Part shown: one piece after another, positions 812 to 25,005 of the stretch
Layout of the letters: each line of letters starts with the position of its first letter
Numbering within the stretch: position 1 is the stretch's first letter
Source of the DNA: a virus
Virus genome (UHGV): UHGV-0137059
Length of the DNA: 27,918 nucleotides
Strand: one strand, 5' to 3'
Notes under the pieces: model-generated
Databases searched by the model: none
What the model was told of the DNA's origin: nothing
Seen by the model: only the letters and a program-made list of their open reading frames with translations
Translations under genes and position numbers: made by a program

Positions 812-1512
812 CAGTCAATCAGCCCATGTAATCTAAGTGCTGTTTCAAGCGCCAGAATACGCTGCCGCGCCTGCTCCAAACCTGTAGCGATAGCTGCGAC
901 TTCGGATTGTGTGTACGTAGTGCCGACCGTGTATGACTGGTTAGCGTTGAATGAGCCAAGAAGAGGTGTACCTGTGGCTGCAGTCCATCCGGTATTTCTT
1001 GCTCCAACAACTTGAATTCCATCAACTGAATATGATGTTTTTACATCCAGCGGTGACGCAAGAGACTGCAATTCGGTTACGGTTTTCGATACGTAATCAC
1101 TCTTAATGCCAGAGACATCGTTTTCTACGTCATCCAGTCTTTGGTCAACAGTGACCAGATGCGCCTGAATATCGATAACCTCATCCAGCAAGTAATCAAC
1201 ATCGCTACGCAGTACGACTATCTTCCCTTCGGCGGTTGTTAACCTGACCTCAAGGAGATTTATCGCTTTTGTGTTTGCGGTGATTCTTGAATCGTGATCT
1301 GCCAGTTCGACGTCCTGTTCATCGTTTTTCACCTGAGCATCGTAAGCGCCCTGACCAGCCTGATTTGCCTTCCCGGCAATTGCGCCGACATCAGCCCCCT
1401 GATTAATGACATACAGCAGGTAAGACTGGCTGAATATATTGCGTGGAAGGATTGATGTATCGAGCCGCGTCGCCTGCACAATAACAGGTGTATTGAGATT
1501 CGAATCAGCCAT
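811..1512 (-). CDS. Tail needle protein (P22 gp26-like, 233 aa)
   Basis: 233 aa; N-terminal [36 protein letters not shown] and C-terminal ...LRLHGLID match recalled P22 gp26; coiled-coil heptad region in the middle. Confidence 0.85.
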
Positions 1513-2930
1513 TACTCAATCCTTATCTGGCAACCTGACAGAGTGACAGGTGACTTCGTGATAACGCGCAATTTGAAACCGACATTTTTCCTGATGCGCC
1601 CGACACGCTTCCACAAAACGCGTTTGTCGTAAACGAACGGTTCATTCTGCTCAATCATCTGCTCACGCCCGTAATTGATGCCGTCAGTGGTTGCAGAGAG
1701 AAAAAGGCGGTCAGCATACTGCGCAACGCCAGTTGACGATTCAACCTCAAAGTCAAACACTCTGGCGTTATCCGCTTTGAACAACGGAGTAAACAGCAGG
1801 TGTTCCTGCTGCTTGTCGTACTGGCTGCTGATATCGAACTGCAATTTCCCGGTCACGGACTCCAGCTTATCTCCGCACGTTATCTGATTGCCTTCGTAAA
1901 TGAAGTCGATAGCGCGGTACACATCGTCATACAGGCCTGTTTTCAGCACACACCATTGCGGACCATTGGAGCTTGAAGATGCGTCGTATACGAGGACGTG
2001 GCGCGGCAGGTGAATAATCAGCAGCTCATGCGCATCAAACCGCAACGATTCCATCACACCATCAGCCAGTTCATCAGCAGTGTAGGAGCGTAGTATTTTC
2101 TCAATGCTCGCGCTGGCGATTGGTGATACCTGACCGGAACCGATGATGTATACAGACGGCGCACCTGTTGCCGGATTGCTGATGAATGCATAAGAATCAG
2201 CAAACGGCGTTTTGCAGTAAGTTCCGGCGATGCCTTTTTGCACCATCAGCGATGGCTGTGCGACATACAACGCGGCACCAACAGTGGTTGCACCAGTCAG
2301 GGAGAAATATTCAATCGTCGATGAACCAAAGCAGACGATGAAATCTCGCCATGTTCCGATGCCGATGATGCCGTCCGGCTGCGATTCTGCGCGATATTGT
2401 GCACTGTAACGGTCAGGATGCGATTCGTCTTCAAGGTCAGTGATAAACCATGAATCAGTTCCGTCTTTTGACCACGCATAACGCCCACGTAAGCGCGTAA
2501 TGTCGCGAACTGAACCTAACTCATACTGAGTGAATCCACTGTCTGTAGGCCAGTTTGAGACGGCTTTAACCGTACCATCATAGCGATACTCGACCAGTTG
2601 ACCATTAACGCCTACCGCCTGTGATGTCCGACCATGCGCCATTGATACACGACCACTTCCGGCGACATCACCAACCTCGCTTTCTCCTTTGTACAGTTTG
2701 CCACCACACACGCGATAAACAGCACTCTGCGCCATGTTGTACTCGACGCCGCGCGATACACCGTTCACATCAGAGCGTTTGGCAATGCCCGGGAATGAGC
2801 GAAGATATCCGCTGCTGTTGAGAATTTCTTTGGGTGTAGCCAGCATATTCACTGGCAGATAGTCGATATATTCGGCGTTTCGGAAGTCTTTGCCGACACC
2901 TTTCATAAGCGGAAGTTGCTGAATCGGCAT
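1512..2930 (-). CDS. Head completion / packaged-DNA stabilisation protein (P22 gp10-like, 472 aa)
   Basis: 472 aa starting [16 protein letters not shown] and ending ...LSGCQIRIE; same length and termini as recalled for P22 gp10. Confidence 0.85.
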
Positions 2931-2939
2931 TTATTCACC

Positions 2940-3401
2940 TCACGTACTCGGATCATCTTTCTCGATGTAAAACCGATTCCACGTAAACGCGCTTTTGTTA
3001 CCACTACCGCGAGGCATGTCATTTCGCCGCTCAAGTGGTGGTATTTTGGTTAAAGCGATACAGATTGTTTGATATGCACTGTCAGCAGCGGTAAGGAGAG
3101 CGTCTGACGGCTGAATGACGTTATCCATGCACACTTGCACAGCGAGCTTCAAAGCGACGCCATCATTTGCCCATGCAGGGATACCTGAATCATCGTCAGG
3201 TAACGGCATGATGCCGTTACCTGTATCAGCAAACTGATATCCAAGCTCGATACCTTTAGCCTGCCATGCTGCCATCATGTCTTCGAGGTCATTAATGGCA
3301 TCTTCAATTGCCTGAGGGTCGGCATCTGTCAACGTGGCATTGGAATACAGCCCGGCTTTTCGTAAAGCCTTAAGAACGAGATCACCCTTCGTTTTCGCCA
3401 T
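2940..3401 (-). CDS. Head-to-tail adaptor (P22 gp4-like, 153 aa)
   Basis: N-terminal KTKGDLVLKALRKAG..ATLTD..PQAIEDAINDLEDMMAAW resembles recalled gp4; sits between the coat and gp10 genes. Confidence 0.7.
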   Translation of the reverse strand: MAKTKGDLVLKALRKAGLYSNATLTDADPQAIEDAINDLEDMMAAWQAKGIELGYQFADTGNGIMPLPDDDSGIPAWANDGVALKLAVQVCMDNVIQPSDALLTAADSAYQTICIALTKIPPLERRNDMPRGSGNKSAFTWNRFYIEKDDPST

Positions 3402-3570
3402 CTTCTTCCGCCTTAGCCACTTTATGCTTCGTTGCGGTTTCTTCAGGAGTTTTTACCCAGCCTTTTTTCAGGTGAGATTTAACTTCTTCGTCATCAACAA
3501 TGATGTAATCGACAGCAAACTGACCACAGGTGATCATGTTGCCAGGCTTATAGAGCATTGTTCGTGCCAT
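3382..3570 (-). CDS. Small hypothetical protein (62 aa) between the coat and gp4 genes
   Basis: ATG at 3570 preceded by GGGAGAAGAC ribosome-binding site; overlaps the gp4 start by 20 nt; acidic C-terminus. Function unknown. Confidence 0.5.
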   Translation of the reverse strand: MARTMLYKPGNMITCGQFAVDYIIVDDEEVKSHLKKGWVKTPEETATKHKVAKAEEDGENEG

Positions 3571-3580
3571 TGTCTTCTCC

Positions 3581-3606
3581 CAATAAAAATGGGGCCGAAG
3601 CCCCAC
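3581..3606 (-). terminator. Rho-independent terminator (partial read-through likely) just downstream of the coat gene
   Basis: Minus-strand GGGGCTTCGGCCCC hairpin (plus 3591-3604) followed by ATTTTTATT. Confidence 0.6.
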
Positions 3607-19406: not shown

Positions 19407-20762
<1,356 letters not shown>

Positions 20763-20926: not shown

Positions 20927-20957
20927 TGCTCTTAAAAATTAAGCCCTGAAGAAGGGC
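20927..20957 (+). promoter_or_regulatory. nutL (boxA GCTCTTAAAAATTAA, boxB GCCCTGAAGAAGGGC)
   Basis: Matches recalled lambda nutL almost exactly; between pL and N. Confidence 0.85.
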
Positions 20958-21115
20958 AGCATTCAAAGCAGAAGGCTTTGGGGTGTGTGATACGAAACGA
21001 AGCATTGGCCGGAAGTGCGAATCCGGATTAGCTGCAAATGAGCCAATCGTGGGGTGTTTTCGTTCAGGACTACGACTCACACACACCACCAAAGCTAACT
21101 GACAAGAGAATCCAG

Positions 21116-21439
21116 ATGGATGCACAAACACGCCGCCGCGAACGTCGCGCAGAGAAACAGGCTCAATGGAAAGCAGCAAATCCCCTGTTGGTTGGGGTAA
21201 GCGCAAAACCAGTTAACCGCCCTATTCTCTCGCTGAATCGCAAACCGAAATCACGAGTAGAAAGCGCACTGAATCCGATAGACCTTACGGTGCTGGCTGA
21301 ATACCACGAACAGATTGAAAGCAACCTGCAACGTATTGAGCGCAAGAATCATCGAGTTTGGTATAGCAAGCCAAGTGAGTTCGGTATAACTTGTCAAGGA
21401 AGACAAAAGGTTAAAGGGAAATCCATTCCATTGGCATGA
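21116..21439 (+). CDS. N: Antitermination protein N (107 aa from ATG at 21116)
   Basis: MDAQTRRRERRAEKQAQWKAANPLLVGVSAKPVNRPILSLNRKPKSRVESALNPIDLTVLAEYH... matches recalled lambda N, including the arginine-rich motif. Confidence 0.95.
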   Translation: MDAQTRRRERRAEKQAQWKAANPLLVGVSAKPVNRPILSLNRKPKSRVESALNPIDLTVLAEYHEQIESNLQRIERKNHRVWYSKPSEFGITCQGRQKVKGKSIPLA

Positions 21440-21447
21440 GGTACGTA

Positions 21448-22317
21448 ATGAAGAAAATTGATTACAAGTCCATACCAAAACCAATAGACTCAGCATCAGA
21501 GCGAAAAAAACACAAAAAAGAGGCTGAAAAATTAGCAAATTATATCAGTTTTATTAGAAACAATGCTCACGGCGATGGCGACAGGAAGTTGCTTTCAGAT
21601 GCCCGGACCCAAGCGTTCAGCATACTTCGTAAGCAGATGCAATATCGTCTTCATCCAGGCTACATAATTGAAATTCGCCCGACTGAAAGACAATTGTTCT
21701 TATTAAACTCTGTCTTTGACTTTGTAAACGTAGTTGGAGATCTTATCGACAGGTCTGTAGATAAGGCTCCTGATACAAATAGTTTTCTTCTAACAAATAA
21801 AGAATACTTATATGGTAAATTTGGTATAAACGGATGGCAAAAATATGTACGATTCTTACGTGCATTCGTTGATGCGTATAAAAATTCCGACATGATTTAT
21901 ACATATTTGCCTGGTGGTAATAATTGTACGCTTTCGGCAGACAATAGAATATTCATACCTATACTTGGTCTTGGGCTGATTAATGCAGTAAATGAAAGAG
22001 ATGTTATAATTGTTAAGCAGTGGCGAAAGCATGAGGGATATAGATATCTGCCATGCTTTGATATATTAAAAATACAGAATAAATTCTATGTAAAAATTAA
22101 ATATAAAGAAGATGTTTTCTTCCTCAGAAAAAACAAAGATCTTTTACAAGAACTTTCTGGGACAATAGATGTCATCGTAGGTTCTAGGTTTATAAAAGAA
22201 CTGAAAGAAAGCAGGTCTTTCTCTCGTGTAGAGATAAGCGAGTCAGAGTTATGGGGTATATCAAATAATCCTGTAAACCACGCTCACCAACGAAATCCAA
22301 ACAAAAAGTGGTCATAA
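21448..22317 (+). CDS. Hypothetical protein (289 aa), strongly AT-rich cargo gene immediately downstream of N
   Basis: ATG at 21448 with GAGGT ribosome-binding site; base composition visibly much lower GC than flanking phage genes (long A/T runs, K/N/I/Y-rich product); no recognisable motif; followed directly by a terminator hairpin. Confidence 0.7.
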   Translation: MKKIDYKSIPKPIDSASERKKHKKEAEKLANYISFIRNNAHGDGDRKLLSDARTQAFSILRKQMQYRLHPGYIIEIRPTERQLFLLNSVFDFVNVVGDLIDRSVDKAPDTNSFLLTNKEYLYGKFGINGWQKYVRFLRAFVDAYKNSDMIYTYLPGGNNCTLSADNRIFIPILGLGLINAVNERDVIIVKQWRKHEGYRYLPCFDILKIQNKFYVKIKYKEDVFFLRKNKDLLQELSGTIDVIVGSRFIKELKESRSFSRVEISESELWGISNNPVNHAHQRNPNKKWS

Positions 22318-22340
22318 CCCGCTCAGGCGGGTTTCATTTT
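22318..22340 (+). terminator. Intrinsic terminator (tL-like) directly after the 289-aa ORF
   Basis: CCCGC-TCAG-GCGGG hairpin followed by TTTCATTTT. Confidence 0.6.
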
Positions 22341-22457
22341 CACGCAAACAACAGAATAAACACTGCACTGTGTATTCATTCCAACGAGTGAATACACGGA
22401 GCAATGTCGCTCGTAACTAAACAGGAGTCGACTTGTTCTGATTATTGGAAATCTTCT

Positions 22458-22487
22458 TTGCCCTCCAGTATGAGGGCAATTTTTTTG
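22458..22487 (+). terminator. Strong intrinsic terminator/attenuator hairpin immediately upstream of the coiled-coil gene ribosome-binding site
   Basis: 8-bp stem TTGCCCTC/GAGGGCAA with 6-nt loop followed by TTTTTTT, then GACGGAGG ribosome-binding site and ATG at 22499. Confidence 0.65.
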
Positions 22488-22498
22488 ACGGAGGATAT

Positions 22499-23467
22499 AT
22501 GAGTGAAGTAACAGATTTAGTTGTTATTGAAAAAGCAAATGCAATGACTGTATTTCAGTCTGCCGACCAGATTGAAGAAATCCTTCAAAAGGTTGAACGT
22601 GAAGTTATGTCCTTTGTGCCTGATATCACAACGGCAAAGGGCAGAAAGGAGATCGCTTCTCTGGCGTATAAAGTTGCGCAGACGAAAACATATCTCGATG
22701 GTCTTGGCAAAGACCTTGTTGCTGAACTGAAGGAAATTCCAAAGCTAATTGATGCCAACCGCAAGACAGTGCGCGATCGCCTTGATGAACTGAAAGCCAA
22801 GGCGCGCCAGCCTCTTACTGATTATGAGGAAGAACAGGCGCGGATTAAAGCCGAAGAAGAAGCTAAGGCAGCAGCTGAAGCTCTCGCAAAGCAAATTGAG
22901 TCTGACCATGAAATAGCGATTTTGATGGATCGCGAATTTGACCGCCAAAGAGAAGAGGCAAGACTCAAAGCGGAGCAGGAAAAGCGAGAGCATGAAGAAC
23001 GCTTAAAAAGAGAAGCTGAAGAGAAAGCCAGAGCAGAAGCCGAAGCAAAGGCAAAAGCCGAAATTGAAGCAGCAGCAAGGCGAGAAGCAGAAGCTAAGGC
23101 CGCAGCGGAACGTGCAGAGCGTGAACGCATTGAAGCCGAGCAACGAGCACAGCGCGACGCAAAAGAGGCAGCAGAACGAGCTGAAAGAGAAAAGCAGGCA
23201 GCAATTGAAGCAGAACGCAGAAAAGCACAGGAGGAGGCTGAACGAATCCGGCGCGAGGCTGAAGCAAAAGAGCAAGCCAGAATAGCAGAAGAAAAAAGAA
23301 TCAAGGAAGAAGAAGAGCGTAGAGCAAAGGATAAAGCTCACCGGAAAGAAGTAAATAACAAAATACTTGCTGACCTTATCAAGGTTGGCGCATCAGAAGA
23401 TGTTGCTAAAAATATCATAACAGCCATCGTAAAAGGCGAAGTATTCGCAACAAAAATAACCTACTAA
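22499..23467 (+). CDS. Hypothetical protein (322 aa) with long central E/R/K/A-rich single-helix or coiled-coil region
   Basis: ATG at 22499 with GGAGG ribosome-binding site; about 130-aa N-terminal domain, about 150 aa of charged repeats (AEAEAKAKAEIEAAARREAEAKAAAERAERERIEAEQ...), short C-terminal domain; not recognised. Confidence 0.7.
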   Translation: MSEVTDLVVIEKANAMTVFQSADQIEEILQKVEREVMSFVPDITTAKGRKEIASLAYKVAQTKTYLDGLGKDLVAELKEIPKLIDANRKTVRDRLDELKAKARQPLTDYEEEQARIKAEEEAKAAAEALAKQIESDHEIAILMDREFDRQREEARLKAEQEKREHEERLKREAEEKARAEAEAKAKAEIEAAARREAEAKAAAERAERERIEAEQRAQRDAKEAAERAEREKQAAIEAERRKAQEEAERIRREAEAKEQARIAEEKRIKEEEERRAKDKAHRKEVNNKILADLIKVGASEDVAKNIITAIVKGEVFATKITY

Positions 23468-23491
23468 TAAAACCAACATAAGGAACCACCC

Positions 23492-23623
23492 ATGATTTAC
23501 GCAATCGCGGGAGGCGCTCGCATGGGTGCCTTCCAACTAAATGAATCTTTACTTGAACGAATCACCCGTAAATTACGTGACGGATGGAAAAGAGTTGAGG
23601 TCTTATTATGCGCAATGAAATAG
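23492..23623 (+). CDS. cIII: cIII-like FtsH inhibitor (43 aa)
   Basis: Hand translation MIYAIAGGARMGAFQLNESLLERITRKLRDGWKRVEVLLCAMK; core ESLLERITRKLRDGWKR matches recalled lambda cIII; ribosome-binding site AAGGA. Confidence 0.75.
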   Translation: MIYAIAGGARMGAFQLNESLLERITRKLRDGWKRVEVLLCAMK

Positions 23624-23760
23624 CCATCAATCACCAGATGCTTCGTGCTGCACAGAACAAAGCAGTAATAGCCAGATTTATTGGTGATTCAAAAATGTGG
23701 CTTGAAGCAAATAAAGCGATGAAATCAGCTATCAACCTTCCGTGGTATCGCAGGAAATGA
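23608..23760 (+). CDS. kil: Kil-like host cell-division inhibitor (50 aa)
   Basis: Hand translation MRNEIAINHQMLRAAQNKAVIARFIGDSKMWLEANKAMKSAINLPWYRRK; IARFIGDSKM resembles lambda Kil; overlaps cIII 3' end as kil/cIII do in lambda. Confidence 0.6.
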   Translation: MRNEIAINHQMLRAAQNKAVIARFIGDSKMWLEANKAMKSAINLPWYRRK

Positions 23761-23927
23761 GTTTTACAGATAACTGGTCAGACGAAGAATTCATTCGTCA
23801 GATGAAAGAATTAATCGGTAACGAAGGAGATATTCATGTCACTTGCAACCACAGTGAAGGAGAGCAAGTTACAGAGACGCATGTACACGCAGCAGGCGTT
23901 AATGTATCGCCAGAAGGGAGATCGTGA
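23757..23927 (+). CDS. Small acidic hypothetical protein (56 aa), possibly an Arf-like accessory protein upstream of erf
   Basis: ATG at 23757 overlaps kil stop (ATGA); product MSFTDNWSDEEFIRQMKELIGNEGD...; identity uncertain. Confidence 0.45.
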   Translation: MSFTDNWSDEEFIRQMKELIGNEGDIHVTCNHSEGEQVTETHVHAAGVNVSPEGRS

Positions 23928-24016
23928 AGGAGTGCGGGTATGTCTTAATTTGTCCCGAGTCGAAGTATTAAATCAGCGTTACTTCCTTGGGCCATGTCCA
24001 TTCTGAGAACAATCAT

Positions 24017-24622
24017 ATGAGCAAAGAATTTTACGCAAGACTGGCAGCTATTCAGGAAAATCTGAACGCGCCCAAGAATCAGTACAACTCATTCGGTAAA
24101 TATAAATACAGAAGCTGCGAAGACATTCTTGAAGGCGTTAAGCCGTTACTGAATGGCCTGTTTTTATCAATCAGCGATGAAGTTGTGTTGATTGGTGATC
24201 GGTATTACGTGAAAGCCACGGCAACTATTACCGATGGCGAAAACAGTCATACGGCAACCGCCCTTGCACGAGAGGAAGAAAGCAAGAAAGGAATGGATTC
24301 TGCACAAGTTACTGGAGCTACAAGCTCTTATGCACGCAAGTATTGCCTCAATGGTTTGTTCGGCATAGATGATGCGAAAGATGCAGATACAGACGAGCAT
24401 AAACATCAGCAGAACGCAGCAGCAAAGCAATCAAAGCCATCACCTACACCTGAACAGGTTTTAAAGGCATTCACTGACGCAGCAATGCAGAAAAACACCG
24501 TGGAAGAGCTTAAACAGGCGTTCGCCAAAGCGTGGAAGATGCTCGAAGGCACACCGGAGCAGCACAAAGCGCAGGACGTTTACAACATCAGACGAGACGA
24601 ATTAGAAGGAGCGGCTGCTTAA
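24017..24622 (+). CDS. erf: Erf single-strand annealing recombinase (201 aa from ATG at 24017)
   Basis: MSKEFYARLAAIQENLNAPKNQYNSFGKYKYRSCEDILEGVKPLLNGLFLSISDEVVLIGDRYYVKATATITDGENSH... matches recalled P22 Erf. Confidence 0.9.
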   Translation: MSKEFYARLAAIQENLNAPKNQYNSFGKYKYRSCEDILEGVKPLLNGLFLSISDEVVLIGDRYYVKATATITDGENSHTATALAREEESKKGMDSAQVTGATSSYARKYCLNGLFGIDDAKDADTDEHKHQQNAAAKQSKPSPTPEQVLKAFTDAAMQKNTVEELKQAFAKAWKMLEGTPEQHKAQDVYNIRRDELEGAAA

Positions 24623-25005
24623 TGGCACATTCGATTACTGTAAGACTAAACAAACCCGCAAGAGAGTTTCAGGCCGGGGAAAATATCGGATTCAACATCC
24701 GTGCTGGCGTTCAGTATTACGATCGCCAGACAAAAAAGAAAGAATGGACAAACTACAGCGCCGTTGTATTTGCCAAGCCGGGAGCGCAAGCGGATTACTA
24801 CCGTAGTGTTCTTGTTGAAGGTGGCATTGTGGAAATTACCGGAGAAAACATCAGGGTTGATGTTTATCAGGGGCAAAATGGTCAATCAATCACTCTTGAA
24901 TTACTGAATGCAAAGATTGGATTTGCAGCTTCAGGAAATGGCCCGCAGCAGCAAAGTAGTAACCAGCAGAACACTCCTGTATACGACGATTCCATCCCAT
25001 TCTGA
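24622..25005 (+). CDS. SSB-like single-stranded DNA-binding protein (127 aa) with C-terminal acidic tip DDSIPF
   Basis: Start ATG overlaps erf stop (TAATG); OB-fold-like core, Gln/Gly-rich linker, C-terminus ...YDDSIPF like the E. coli SSB tail DDDIPF. Confidence 0.75.
   Translation: MAHSITVRLNKPAREFQAGENIGFNIRAGVQYYDRQTKKKEWTNYSAVVFAKPGAQADYYRSVLVEGGIVEITGENIRVDVYQGQNGQSITLELLNAKIGFAASGNGPQQQSSNQQNTPVYDDSIPF

Follow-up and report, generated by a model that had tools for sequence, protein, structure and literature searches.

The stretch of DNA examined here, the 27,918-nucleotide (nt) viral genome UHGV-0137059 (hereafter the window), carries on its plus strand a gene for a 289-residue protein that runs from 21448 to 22317, stop codon included, and is the homologue of CPT_434_48 of Escherichia phage 434. 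The gene lies directly behind that of a 107-residue lambda-type antiterminator N (MDAQTRRRERRAEKQAQWKAANPLL...; 21116-21439, plus strand; annotated N in 434). As an earlier note made from the DNA letters alone had said, it occupies the slot between N and cIII in which lambda carries ral and sieB, with a cIII-like open reading frame (ORF) downstream at 23492-23623. The ORF call and the 434 annotation agree on the start; another in-frame ATG, at 21436, shares bases with the N stop codon (ATGA), and in alignment the homologues all begin at the equivalent of 21448. The gene has its own Shine-Dalgarno sequence, GAGG at 21438-21441 (plus strand), which stands 6 nt before the ATG and overlaps the N stop codon (TGA, 21437-21439); the 434 record has a ribosome-binding site annotated at the equivalent place. 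An intrinsic terminator on the same strand (AACCCGCTCAGGCGGGTT + TCATTTTCAC, 22316-22343; hairpin 22316-22333) overlaps the stop codon of the gene. Both signals had been noted before. The protein resembles lambda Ral and SieB and the P22 gene 17 product in its slot, its moron-like character, its AT-rich gene and the role in conflict to be expected of it, but not in sequence: the Ral, SieB and P22 gp17 families gave no Pfam, PHROG or NCBIfam match to it, and Pfam, NCBIfam and PADLOC scans of the protein returned no match. A Ral or SieB homology, which the earlier note had named as refuting its reading, thus did not appear.

The earlier note had seen no motif in the product and missed its diagnostic part. 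Residues 276-289 (22273-22314, plus strand) read VNHAHQRNPNKKWS and are identical at 14 of 14 positions to the C-terminus of the phage HK022 protein Nun (V96-S109), the peptide that arrests RNA polymerase (RNAP); the HK022 Nun query sequence was itself checked, at 100% identity. The tail matched positions 93-112 of the PHROG Nun family (phrog_5632; E 4e-5) and chain N of PDB 6ALG (E 1e-3), the sole PDB relative found. In the cryo-electron microscopy structure of Nun bound to a transcription elongation complex, N97, H98, H100, R102, K106, K107 and W108 contact RNAP, RNA and DNA; N103 makes no contacts and the N103A protein behaves like wild type, and Nun without its last 13 residues neither binds nor arrests RNAP (PMC5386594). 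Across the family of the 289-residue protein, even in homologues 41-48% identical overall, the tail keeps the invariant pattern V, N, H, A, H, x, R, x, x, x, K, K, W. Seven of the invariant residues are exactly the contact residues of Nun, and the variable positions correspond to Nun Q101, N103, P104 and N105. Residues 247-289 are disordered in the AlphaFold model, as an extended mode of binding requires; Nun has a disordered tail too, and also lies at the start of a pL operon.

The likeness to Nun ends with this region. When Nun was used as a tblastn query only its residues 69-110 aligned, at 36% identity, and nothing Nun-like was found upstream of about residue 263. Nun is a disordered protein of 109 residues, in a family of about 80-125 residues, whereas the protein studied here has 289 residues and a folded body of 220. 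It lacks the arginine-rich, boxB-binding motif of Nun, and in phage 434, unlike Nun, it coexists with a lambda-type N and nut.

No part of the protein is more constrained than the tail, which is under strong purifying selection. By the Nei-Gojobori method, the proportion of non-synonymous differences (pN) was 0.00-0.13 in the tail at a high to saturated synonymous proportion (pS, 0.5 or more), against pN values of 0.21-0.44 in the body. Between the homologues at loci L003 and L004, the 14 tail codons differ by nine synonymous changes and no non-synonymous one. The E. coli copy alone could not have settled the matter, and in this respect weighs against a role for the peptide: its tail codons and some 85 nt downstream, terminator included, match the 3′ end of HK022 nun at nearly every base as far as the IS903 insertion in HK022, so that 22316-22343 is part of a tail-plus-terminator module common, almost base for base, to the two genes. 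Selection cannot be told there from a recombination junction, and the argument needs the diverged homologues. In these, conservation does not extend into the DNA 3′ of the stop codon, although every one of them has a hairpin of its own directly after the stop. Because the peptide was kept while the downstream DNA was not, the tail has been selected as a peptide and is not the scar of a junction.

These data bear most directly on the possibility that the tail is incidental, the tail and terminator persisting as a recombination boundary common to lambdoid phages and the function lying wholly in the TnpB-like body described below, which might, for example, regulate by binding DNA or RNA, or inhibit a BREX-like defence or serve as its decoy. 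That the E. coli tail and its 85 nt form one mosaic module with nun would fit this explanation, as would the GC content of the tail and the sequence just downstream (22272-22420), which at 0.436 is like ordinary lambdoid DNA and unlike the body (0.348), and the existence inside defence loci of body relatives that have no Nun tail. It accounts poorly for a peptide retained through many synonymous changes, for its position as the most constrained part of the protein, for the lack of conservation after the stop codon in diverged homologues, and for the coincidence of conserved positions with RNAP-contact residues; we therefore regard it as quite unlikely.

The tail is not confined to this family or to Nun. 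An IMG/VR scan for DNA able to encode N-H-A-H-x-R-x3-K-K-W gave at least 120 loci, and in 120 of 121 matches the motif was the extreme C-terminus of its ORF, followed by S and a stop codon or by a stop codon directly. The carriers were of two kinds: about 90 small proteins of 83-123 residues with at least 10 unrelated N-terminal halves, most of which contain arginine-rich motifs and some of which start like lambda N (MDAQARRRE...), and about 25 members of the 290-residue family, among them the further diverged proteins of L034, L053, L101 and L126. The same tail on many unrelated carriers thus behaves as a portable effector that has been combined with many different tethers. This accords with the view that, for Nun itself, nut RNA serves only as a tether close to the elongation complex and can be dispensed with in vitro (PMC4496710).

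Among the individual carriers, locus L077 has two tandem Nun-tailed small ORFs on its minus strand (3257-3292 and 3556-3591), one of 88 residues with a lambda-N-like arginine-rich motif and an unrelated one of 79 residues. In Hafnia phage Pocitis76 (OL512804.1, 31359-32035) a tblastn search with Nun gave a match at 43% identity that is split in two across 677 bp, where the record annotates two genes as 'transcriptional regulator'; this may be another tail-bearing architecture. An apparent 45-residue 'mini Nun' ORF in the Stx phage PA28 was set aside as a mis-annotated full-length nun.

The body carries the second line of evidence. AlphaFold with 5 sequences gave a model too poor to use (pLDDT, the predicted local distance difference test score, 50.5); with 16 sequences, distant relatives included, pLDDT rose to 74.4 and the predicted template modelling score to 0.70, and residues 10-220 were mostly at pLDDT 80-95 (lowest ten-residue block, 72). 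The modelled chain consists of a helical hairpin (16-65), a strand (72-77), a helical bundle (80-145), a small β-barrel (152-217) and a long helix (223-255). Residues 1-70 (21448-21657, plus strand) make up the hairpin, which is basic (net +9) and has helices at 16-38 and 43-65 (model ma8fd0cad179d, pLDDT 82-95). Residues 71-220 (21658-22107, plus strand), with the strand IIEIRP, the bundle and the barrel (CTLS, IFIPILGLGLI, KFYVKIKY), appear to form a WED+REC lobe of the TnpB/Cas12 kind. Residues 221-275 (22108-22272, plus strand) form the long helix and then, from 247 in the model, a disordered linker containing SFSRVEI, which recurs in distant relatives as the alignment block S(F/Y)SRV(E/D)(I/F). 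Residues 14-30 (SERKKHKKEAEKLANY) had been considered as a lambda-N-like arginine-rich motif; the idea was dropped, the segment being poorly conserved and modelled within a well-packed helical hairpin.

Structure prediction with a Foldseek search, a check that the earlier note had proposed, ranked the TnpB/Cas12 family first, with moderate support: in three libraries the best fold matches of the body were TnpB, Cas12 and Fanzor proteins. Against the PDB the top matches were dCas12f (probability 0.85), Cas12p, Cas12f and Cas-lambda, none of which passes E 1e-3. In the viral library BFVD the top match was a mimivirus TnpB-type transposase (E 2.5e-3, probability 0.89), with giant-virus TnpB-type transposases of Klosneuvirus and Edafosvirus (probabilities 0.77 and 0.57) and a Cas12f1-like protein among the others. 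Profile-profile comparison with a TnpB N-lobe profile of 83 sequences aligned residues 71-98 (GYIIEIRPTERQLFLLNSVF...) with TnpB 6-33. A permissive hhalign run, in which the ISDra2 sequence had been checked against 8BF8, was colinear over residues 66-233 and ISDra2 TnpB 1-188, pairing RIFIPILGLGLI with RLKLPKLGWVK and NKFYVKIKY with EGHYEASVLC; its score of 24.7 exceeded those of all 30 column-shuffled controls (maximum 16.5, mean 12.3), at an HH probability of only 5%. With moderate confidence we take the modelled body to be such a WED+REC lobe, the part of TnpB/Cas12 that binds guide RNA and target DNA.

The protein appears to share with TnpB, Cas12f and Fanzor (IS200/IS605 OrfB; PDB 8H1J, 8EXA, 9UDI) the order and predicted fold of this lobe over residues ~71-220: a first strand with P-x3-Q-x3-L, a helical bundle, and a β-barrel with I-x-I/L-P-x-L-G and K-F/W-Y-V. 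On the other hand, after the WED-like barrel (about residue 220) it has just one helix and the disordered tail, with no counterpart of RuvC or of the TNB/zinc-finger domain and no D-E-D residues; it is not in a transposon, it has an RNAP-arrest tail, and no guide or omega RNA is evident (no dedicated search was made). Since it ends after the barrel and has no TnpB Pfam match, it is not a TnpB; going by the model, it probably derives from, or converges on, the nucleic-acid-binding half of one. TldR/dCas12f-type nuclease-dead proteins reportedly keep the whole TnpB/Cas12 fold, with RuvC inactivated, and use guide RNAs; the 289-residue protein, unlike them, keeps the N-terminal lobe alone and would act through its appended Nun peptide. 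What they would have in common is the re-use of a TnpB-derived recognition module on RNAP or transcription (bioRxiv 10.1101/2023.11.30.569447; PMC12259091).

Relatives of the body are found in defence loci. An exhaustive profile search detected about 20 further proteins of 210-330 residues with a common core, marked by P-x3-Q-x3-L-D-x-LF-GP, FLL-NK, CSIS, Y-PI-x2-LGL, RY-x3-F and the S(F/Y)SRV(E/D)(I/F) block. They have no equivalent of residues 1-70, which are limited to the Nun-tailed subfamily, and in place of the Nun tail they end in a basic conserved peptide, ...L-x-G-x2-V-x-GGLPSLGKRR; in relatives P0011-P0039 (alignment A3, columns 501-544) the ending reads ...(D/N)F-x2-L-x-G-x2-V-x-GGLPSLGKRR. 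The GGLPSLGKRR peptide matched no known interaction motif. The genes of two relatives, P0035 and P0036, stand between brxC and pglX in bona fide BREX operons on four independent contigs, in which PADLOC recognised BrxA (3e-93), BrxB (4e-73), BrxC (0) and PglX (0); a third, P0032, adjoins NYN, RelA/SpoT, PLD and MZB genes in a DISARM-like island. No PADLOC model covers the BREX-embedded relative, and body relatives are not mentioned in a 2026 survey of BREX diversity. Since relatives with another tail lie in BREX and other defence loci, the body family is defence-associated and its C-terminal peptides are interchangeable. Together with the Nun-type tail, this fits the guess in the earlier note that the gene is defence, exclusion or abortive-infection cargo.

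The BREX-borne loci (L008-L011; e.g. L010 2128-14867) have the order BrxA-BrxB-BrxC-[288-residue relative]-PglX, followed by genes for proteins of 376 and 423 residues and an HSP70-like protein (~610 residues), for which there is no PADLOC model; no PglZ was found within 7 kb downstream. They may represent an unusual BREX variant or a second embedded system. The P0032 locus (ParB_N, the relative, NYN/OST-HTH, a 1003-residue RelA/SpoT protein, PLD, MZB helicase) looks like a composite defence island.

The third line of evidence is position. In the window, 434, L003, L006, L034, L053 and L101 the gene starts no more than 10 nt from the N stop codon or overlaps the end of N; in the last five the gap is 1-10 nt or a short overlap. 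The N proteins that precede it are of three arginine-rich motif types: lambda-type, ARNRRSERRAELQADY, and SSAARRRERLKSAA, the last of which we take to be H-19B-like. In the E. coli loci L062, L089 and L124 the gene stays with N though the repressor differs, so that its linkage is to N and not to immunity. L004 and L126 have no N, and there it opens the pL operon, preceded by a leader similar to that between cI and nun in HK022: a core of ~75 nt is almost identical to HK022, lies at the place of putL and folds into two stem-loops. The putL-like assignment in L004 was made by this near-identity and the two predicted stem-loops, the folding energy not departing from that of shuffled sequences (z = 0.03); Rfam gave no nut or put model match, not even on HK022 itself. 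On these sequence grounds the gene is placed exactly at the nun position of HK022-type phage. Small Nun-tailed proteins can take the slot behind N as well: in L073 one follows a genuine lambda-type N with a gap of 7 nt, and most nun-bearing contigs have an intact N-like ORF of ~100 residues (MVTIVWKESKGTAKSRYKARRAELIAERR...) ending just before nun. Given the shared slots behind N or a putL-like leader, the 290-residue gene and nun are positional alternatives.

The N-like ORF before nun is seen in L098 (~2590-2900), L047 and L133, and HK022 (L007 1137-1500) keeps a 3′ remnant of it beside the leader that contains putL; HK022 may thus derive from an ancestor with N plus nun. A doubt over the annotation of 'N' in PA28, which matches the HK022 leader, was dropped, intact N-like ORFs preceding nun in many contigs. 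L034 (reverse complement, 1108-3579) encodes in order an H-19B-like N, the 290-residue homologue, an HNH-like ORF of 200 residues and a second N-like ORF of 95 residues that ends ...SRGKSIPLI like lambda N, giving two N-type genes in one early-left region.

In the window the pL leader contains a nutL boxB hairpin (GCCCTGAAGAAGGGC, 20943-20957, plus strand) that matches the annotated nutL stem-loop of 434 (L001 3943-3959, offset 17000) and shows, to judge by its sequence and predicted fold, an operon using a lambda-type N/nut system. Because the window phage uses lambda-type N and nut, its 289-residue protein cannot target lambda boxB as Nun does. On the plus strand the first terminator-like site after pL is the one that overlaps the stop codon of the gene, so the gene should be immediate-early with N and independent of antitermination. 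The earlier note had it expressed from pL with N antitermination; transcription from pL with N stands, and the dependence on antitermination falls. The gene is probably co-transcribed with N and its translation coupled to that of N. The region has five terminator-like sites, where shuffled sequences gave 1.3 ± 1.3, including a second intrinsic terminator (TTGCCCTCCAGTATGAGGGCAA + T7, 22458-22489, plus strand; hairpin 22458-22479) that stands before the next gene and is annotated as a terminator in 434.

A hairpin follows the stop codon directly in the window, 434, HK022 nun, L003, L004 and L006. This arrangement, with co-transcription and probable translational coupling to N, could be taken as a sign of autoregulation in cis, the protein, for instance, arresting its own pL polymerase at the stop-overlapping terminator and so timing the switch from immediate-early to N-dependent delayed-early transcription. 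Such a role appears highly improbable: nun mutations leave lytic growth and lysogeny of HK022 unaffected (PMC4496710), lambda and lambda imm434 manage without the gene, with ral and sieB instead, and a terminator that ends a transcription unit is ordinary.

We propose that the 289-residue protein serves in phage conflicts as an arrest effector of the Nun type, with a TnpB-like nucleic-acid-binding body for its tether, a reading whose chances of being right or wrong we judge about equal. The two-module protein would be made from pL, along with N, as soon as infection or induction begins. Its disordered tail VNHAHQRNPNKKWS, the same effector as in HK022 Nun, would thread from the RNAP surface beside the upstream DNA into the active-site cleft and cross-link RNAP to its nucleic-acid scaffold, so that translocation stops. 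The body (residues ~71-220 and the N-terminal helical hairpin) would replace the arginine-rich boxB-binding motif of Nun as the tether; most likely it would bind a particular RNA or DNA feature and so enrich the tail around the elongation complexes that it is to stop. For this protein, arrest of RNAP by the tail is inferred, as is nucleic-acid binding by the body. The phage's own transcription would presumably be spared, its complexes being modified by N or, in the N-less lineage, by put RNA: put-modified RNAP reads through Nun-dependent arrest (PMC8632103; PMC5386594), N shares the entry route of the Nun tail (PMC8632103), and by analogy complexes modified in either way should be immune. The likely role would be exclusion of, or competition with, other mobile elements (or the host) during lytic growth.

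The same observations suit a broader action, in which the protein, simply a stable scaffold bearing a high dose of Nun tail, would stop every unmodified elongation complex of host and competitors alike, those of the phage being immune through N or put modification; the body would then give stability or a general affinity for RNAP or DNA, and no sequence specificity. Over-produced Nun arrests any elongation complex and is toxic without nut sites (PMC5386594; PMC4496710), the Nun tail and N enter by one route, and RNAP modified by put withstands Nun arrest (PMC8632103). The gene would moreover be immediate-early, with no terminator before it, and is tightly linked to N or a putL-like leader. We nevertheless consider untargeted shut-off unlikely. 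A body of 275 residues with conserved motifs and a TnpB-like fold exceeds what a scaffold needs, Q-modified late transcription is not obviously protected, and shut-off of host transcription is not known for lambda-like phages.

Several points weigh against the tethered arrest effector that we prefer. The segment just before the tail has neither H93 nor R94 of Nun, and the Nun R94A substitution strongly weakens binding (PMC5386594); the intrinsic affinity of the protein for RNAP may therefore be lower than that of Nun. On the side of the body, the Foldseek and hhalign values given above are low and the model comes from a 16-sequence alignment. TnpB Pfam models hit none of 24 superfamily members, PF01385 and PF07282 giving nothing even at E 10; a permissive Pfam scan of these members returned nothing consistent, and the superfamily profile matched no PDB sequence. 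No candidate target or partner RNA was found for the protein: Rfam gave none, and the downstream DNA is a terminator region common to lambdoid phages without the gene, no dedicated search for a guide or partner RNA having been made. A promoter of its own was sought, and the 5 promoter-like sites found, against 4.8 expected, are at chance level, which makes expression from a repressed prophage doubtful. With pL repressed in the lysogen and no evident promoter of its own, Nun-style exclusion by a resident prophage is doubtful too; HK022 Nun acts from the HK022 prophage, whereas no lysogen is known to express the 289-residue protein. Finally, no paper discussing the gene was found in the searchable literature.

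A more general possibility, which we think rather unlikely, is that WED/REC-only TnpB derivatives form a class with interchangeable C-terminal effector peptides. The phage lobe would recognise a specific RNA or DNA, possibly guided, and deliver the Nun peptide, giving a sequence-addressed arrest to which the phage's own N- or put-modified polymerases are immune; the lobe of the BREX branch would carry GGLPSLGKRR, aimed at another machine, and the 289-residue protein would be the first example. If so, the TnpB/Cas12 world would be linked to the classic N/Nun paradigm of transcription control. Nun has been regarded as a singular case: one small protein whose only known target is lambda and to which no further function is ascribed (PMC4496710). 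Its RNAP-jamming peptide is instead a portable module, present on many small proteins with arginine-rich motifs and on a 290-residue family with a TnpB-like body. Were the tethered-effector reading correct, it would provide a natural case of transcription arrest addressed by a TnpB-derived domain, the self-immunity of antiterminated polymerases would explain why such genes ride directly behind N or put, and the uncharacterised gene that some BREX operons contain would have a starting point for its study. That the tail exists was already on record in one GenBank annotation, that of 434. As far as the searchable literature shows, its selection across a diverged family, its portability, the TnpB-like body, the BREX-embedded relatives with another tail and the rules of the N/put slot are new.

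The gene had also been called an orphan of recent horizontal origin, and neither description holds. Positions 21000-22485 are 97.5% identical to phage 434 (OL657226), whose counterpart protein (CPT_434_48, UMO75312.1; 96.9% amino-acid identity) is annotated 'Nun C-terminal peptide-containing protein', and phrog_12139, to which no function is assigned, matches over the full length (E 3e-203). The gene is in 93 of 5426 complete E. coli genomes (~1.7%), always on the chromosome and always annotated "hypothetical protein". The protein family is nonetheless very small, with five clusters from 5.8 billion sequences and a few more members from an exhaustive profile search of 1.8 billion representatives; members reach 68%, 48%, 41% and 37% identity to the window protein. 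Lambda and lambda imm434 carry ral and sieB in place of the gene, and lambda DNA aligns to its flanks only, so the classic work with imm434 hybrids never touched it.

Of the 93 E. coli copies, about 10 are no longer intact: one is interrupted by IS1, and others keep only query bases 317-870 or 643-870 (H126-H129). Such losses would fit a toxic gene that is now and then selected against, but equally the ordinary decay of prophages.

As to origin, the AT-richness reported earlier is real. The gene has a GC content of 0.351 (0.307 at third codon positions) against a window mean of 0.480 over 870-nt stretches (standard deviation 0.036), which makes it the lowest-GC 870-nt stretch in the 27.9-kb window, 3.6 standard deviations under the mean; its neighbours lie in the range 0.45-0.48 (N 0.483, cI 0.460, the 322-residue gene downstream 0.461). 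All seven phage-borne homologues, however, are 6-14 points below their own flanks: L006 (0.334 vs 0.473), L003 (0.397 vs 0.489), L004 (0.380 vs 0.506), L034 (0.365 vs 0.439), L053 (0.348 vs 0.438), L101 (0.442 vs 0.501) and 434 (0.346 vs 0.471). Since these homologues have diverged to synonymous saturation, low GC is a lasting trait of the cassette and not evidence of recent arrival; it appears, from these comparisons, to be an old property of the whole family, as is common for morons. The earlier note was thus right that the gene is real and unusual, made a plausible guess at its general role, and read too much into composition.

A 434-type cI (19729-20361) lies upstream of N, with cro, and a kil-like ORF (23608-23760) lies downstream of the 289-residue gene. 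From 22499 to 25005 (plus strand) the window is unlike 434, a different recombination module replacing ea10-cIII-kil-gam-bet-exo; it comprises a 322-residue ORF, the cIII-like and kil-like ORFs, an ERF recombinase (Pfam E 2e-44) and an ORF like that of a single-stranded-DNA-binding protein. The 322-residue ORF encodes a Glu/Lys/Ala-rich coiled coil (phrog_1376, annotated 'TolA' in mEp043). A functional link between it and the 289-residue gene, as raised earlier, was rejected: it is absent from 434 and from most loci with the 289-residue gene, where the next gene is ea10. A 158-residue ORF (20286-20762, plus strand) overlaps the 3′ end of cI, matches phrog_2651 and corresponds to Hex of phage 434, a 'repressor protection protein' (PMID 23303392); the 434 record gives Hex a later start and 134 residues, and says that the original paper inferred the wrong start codon.

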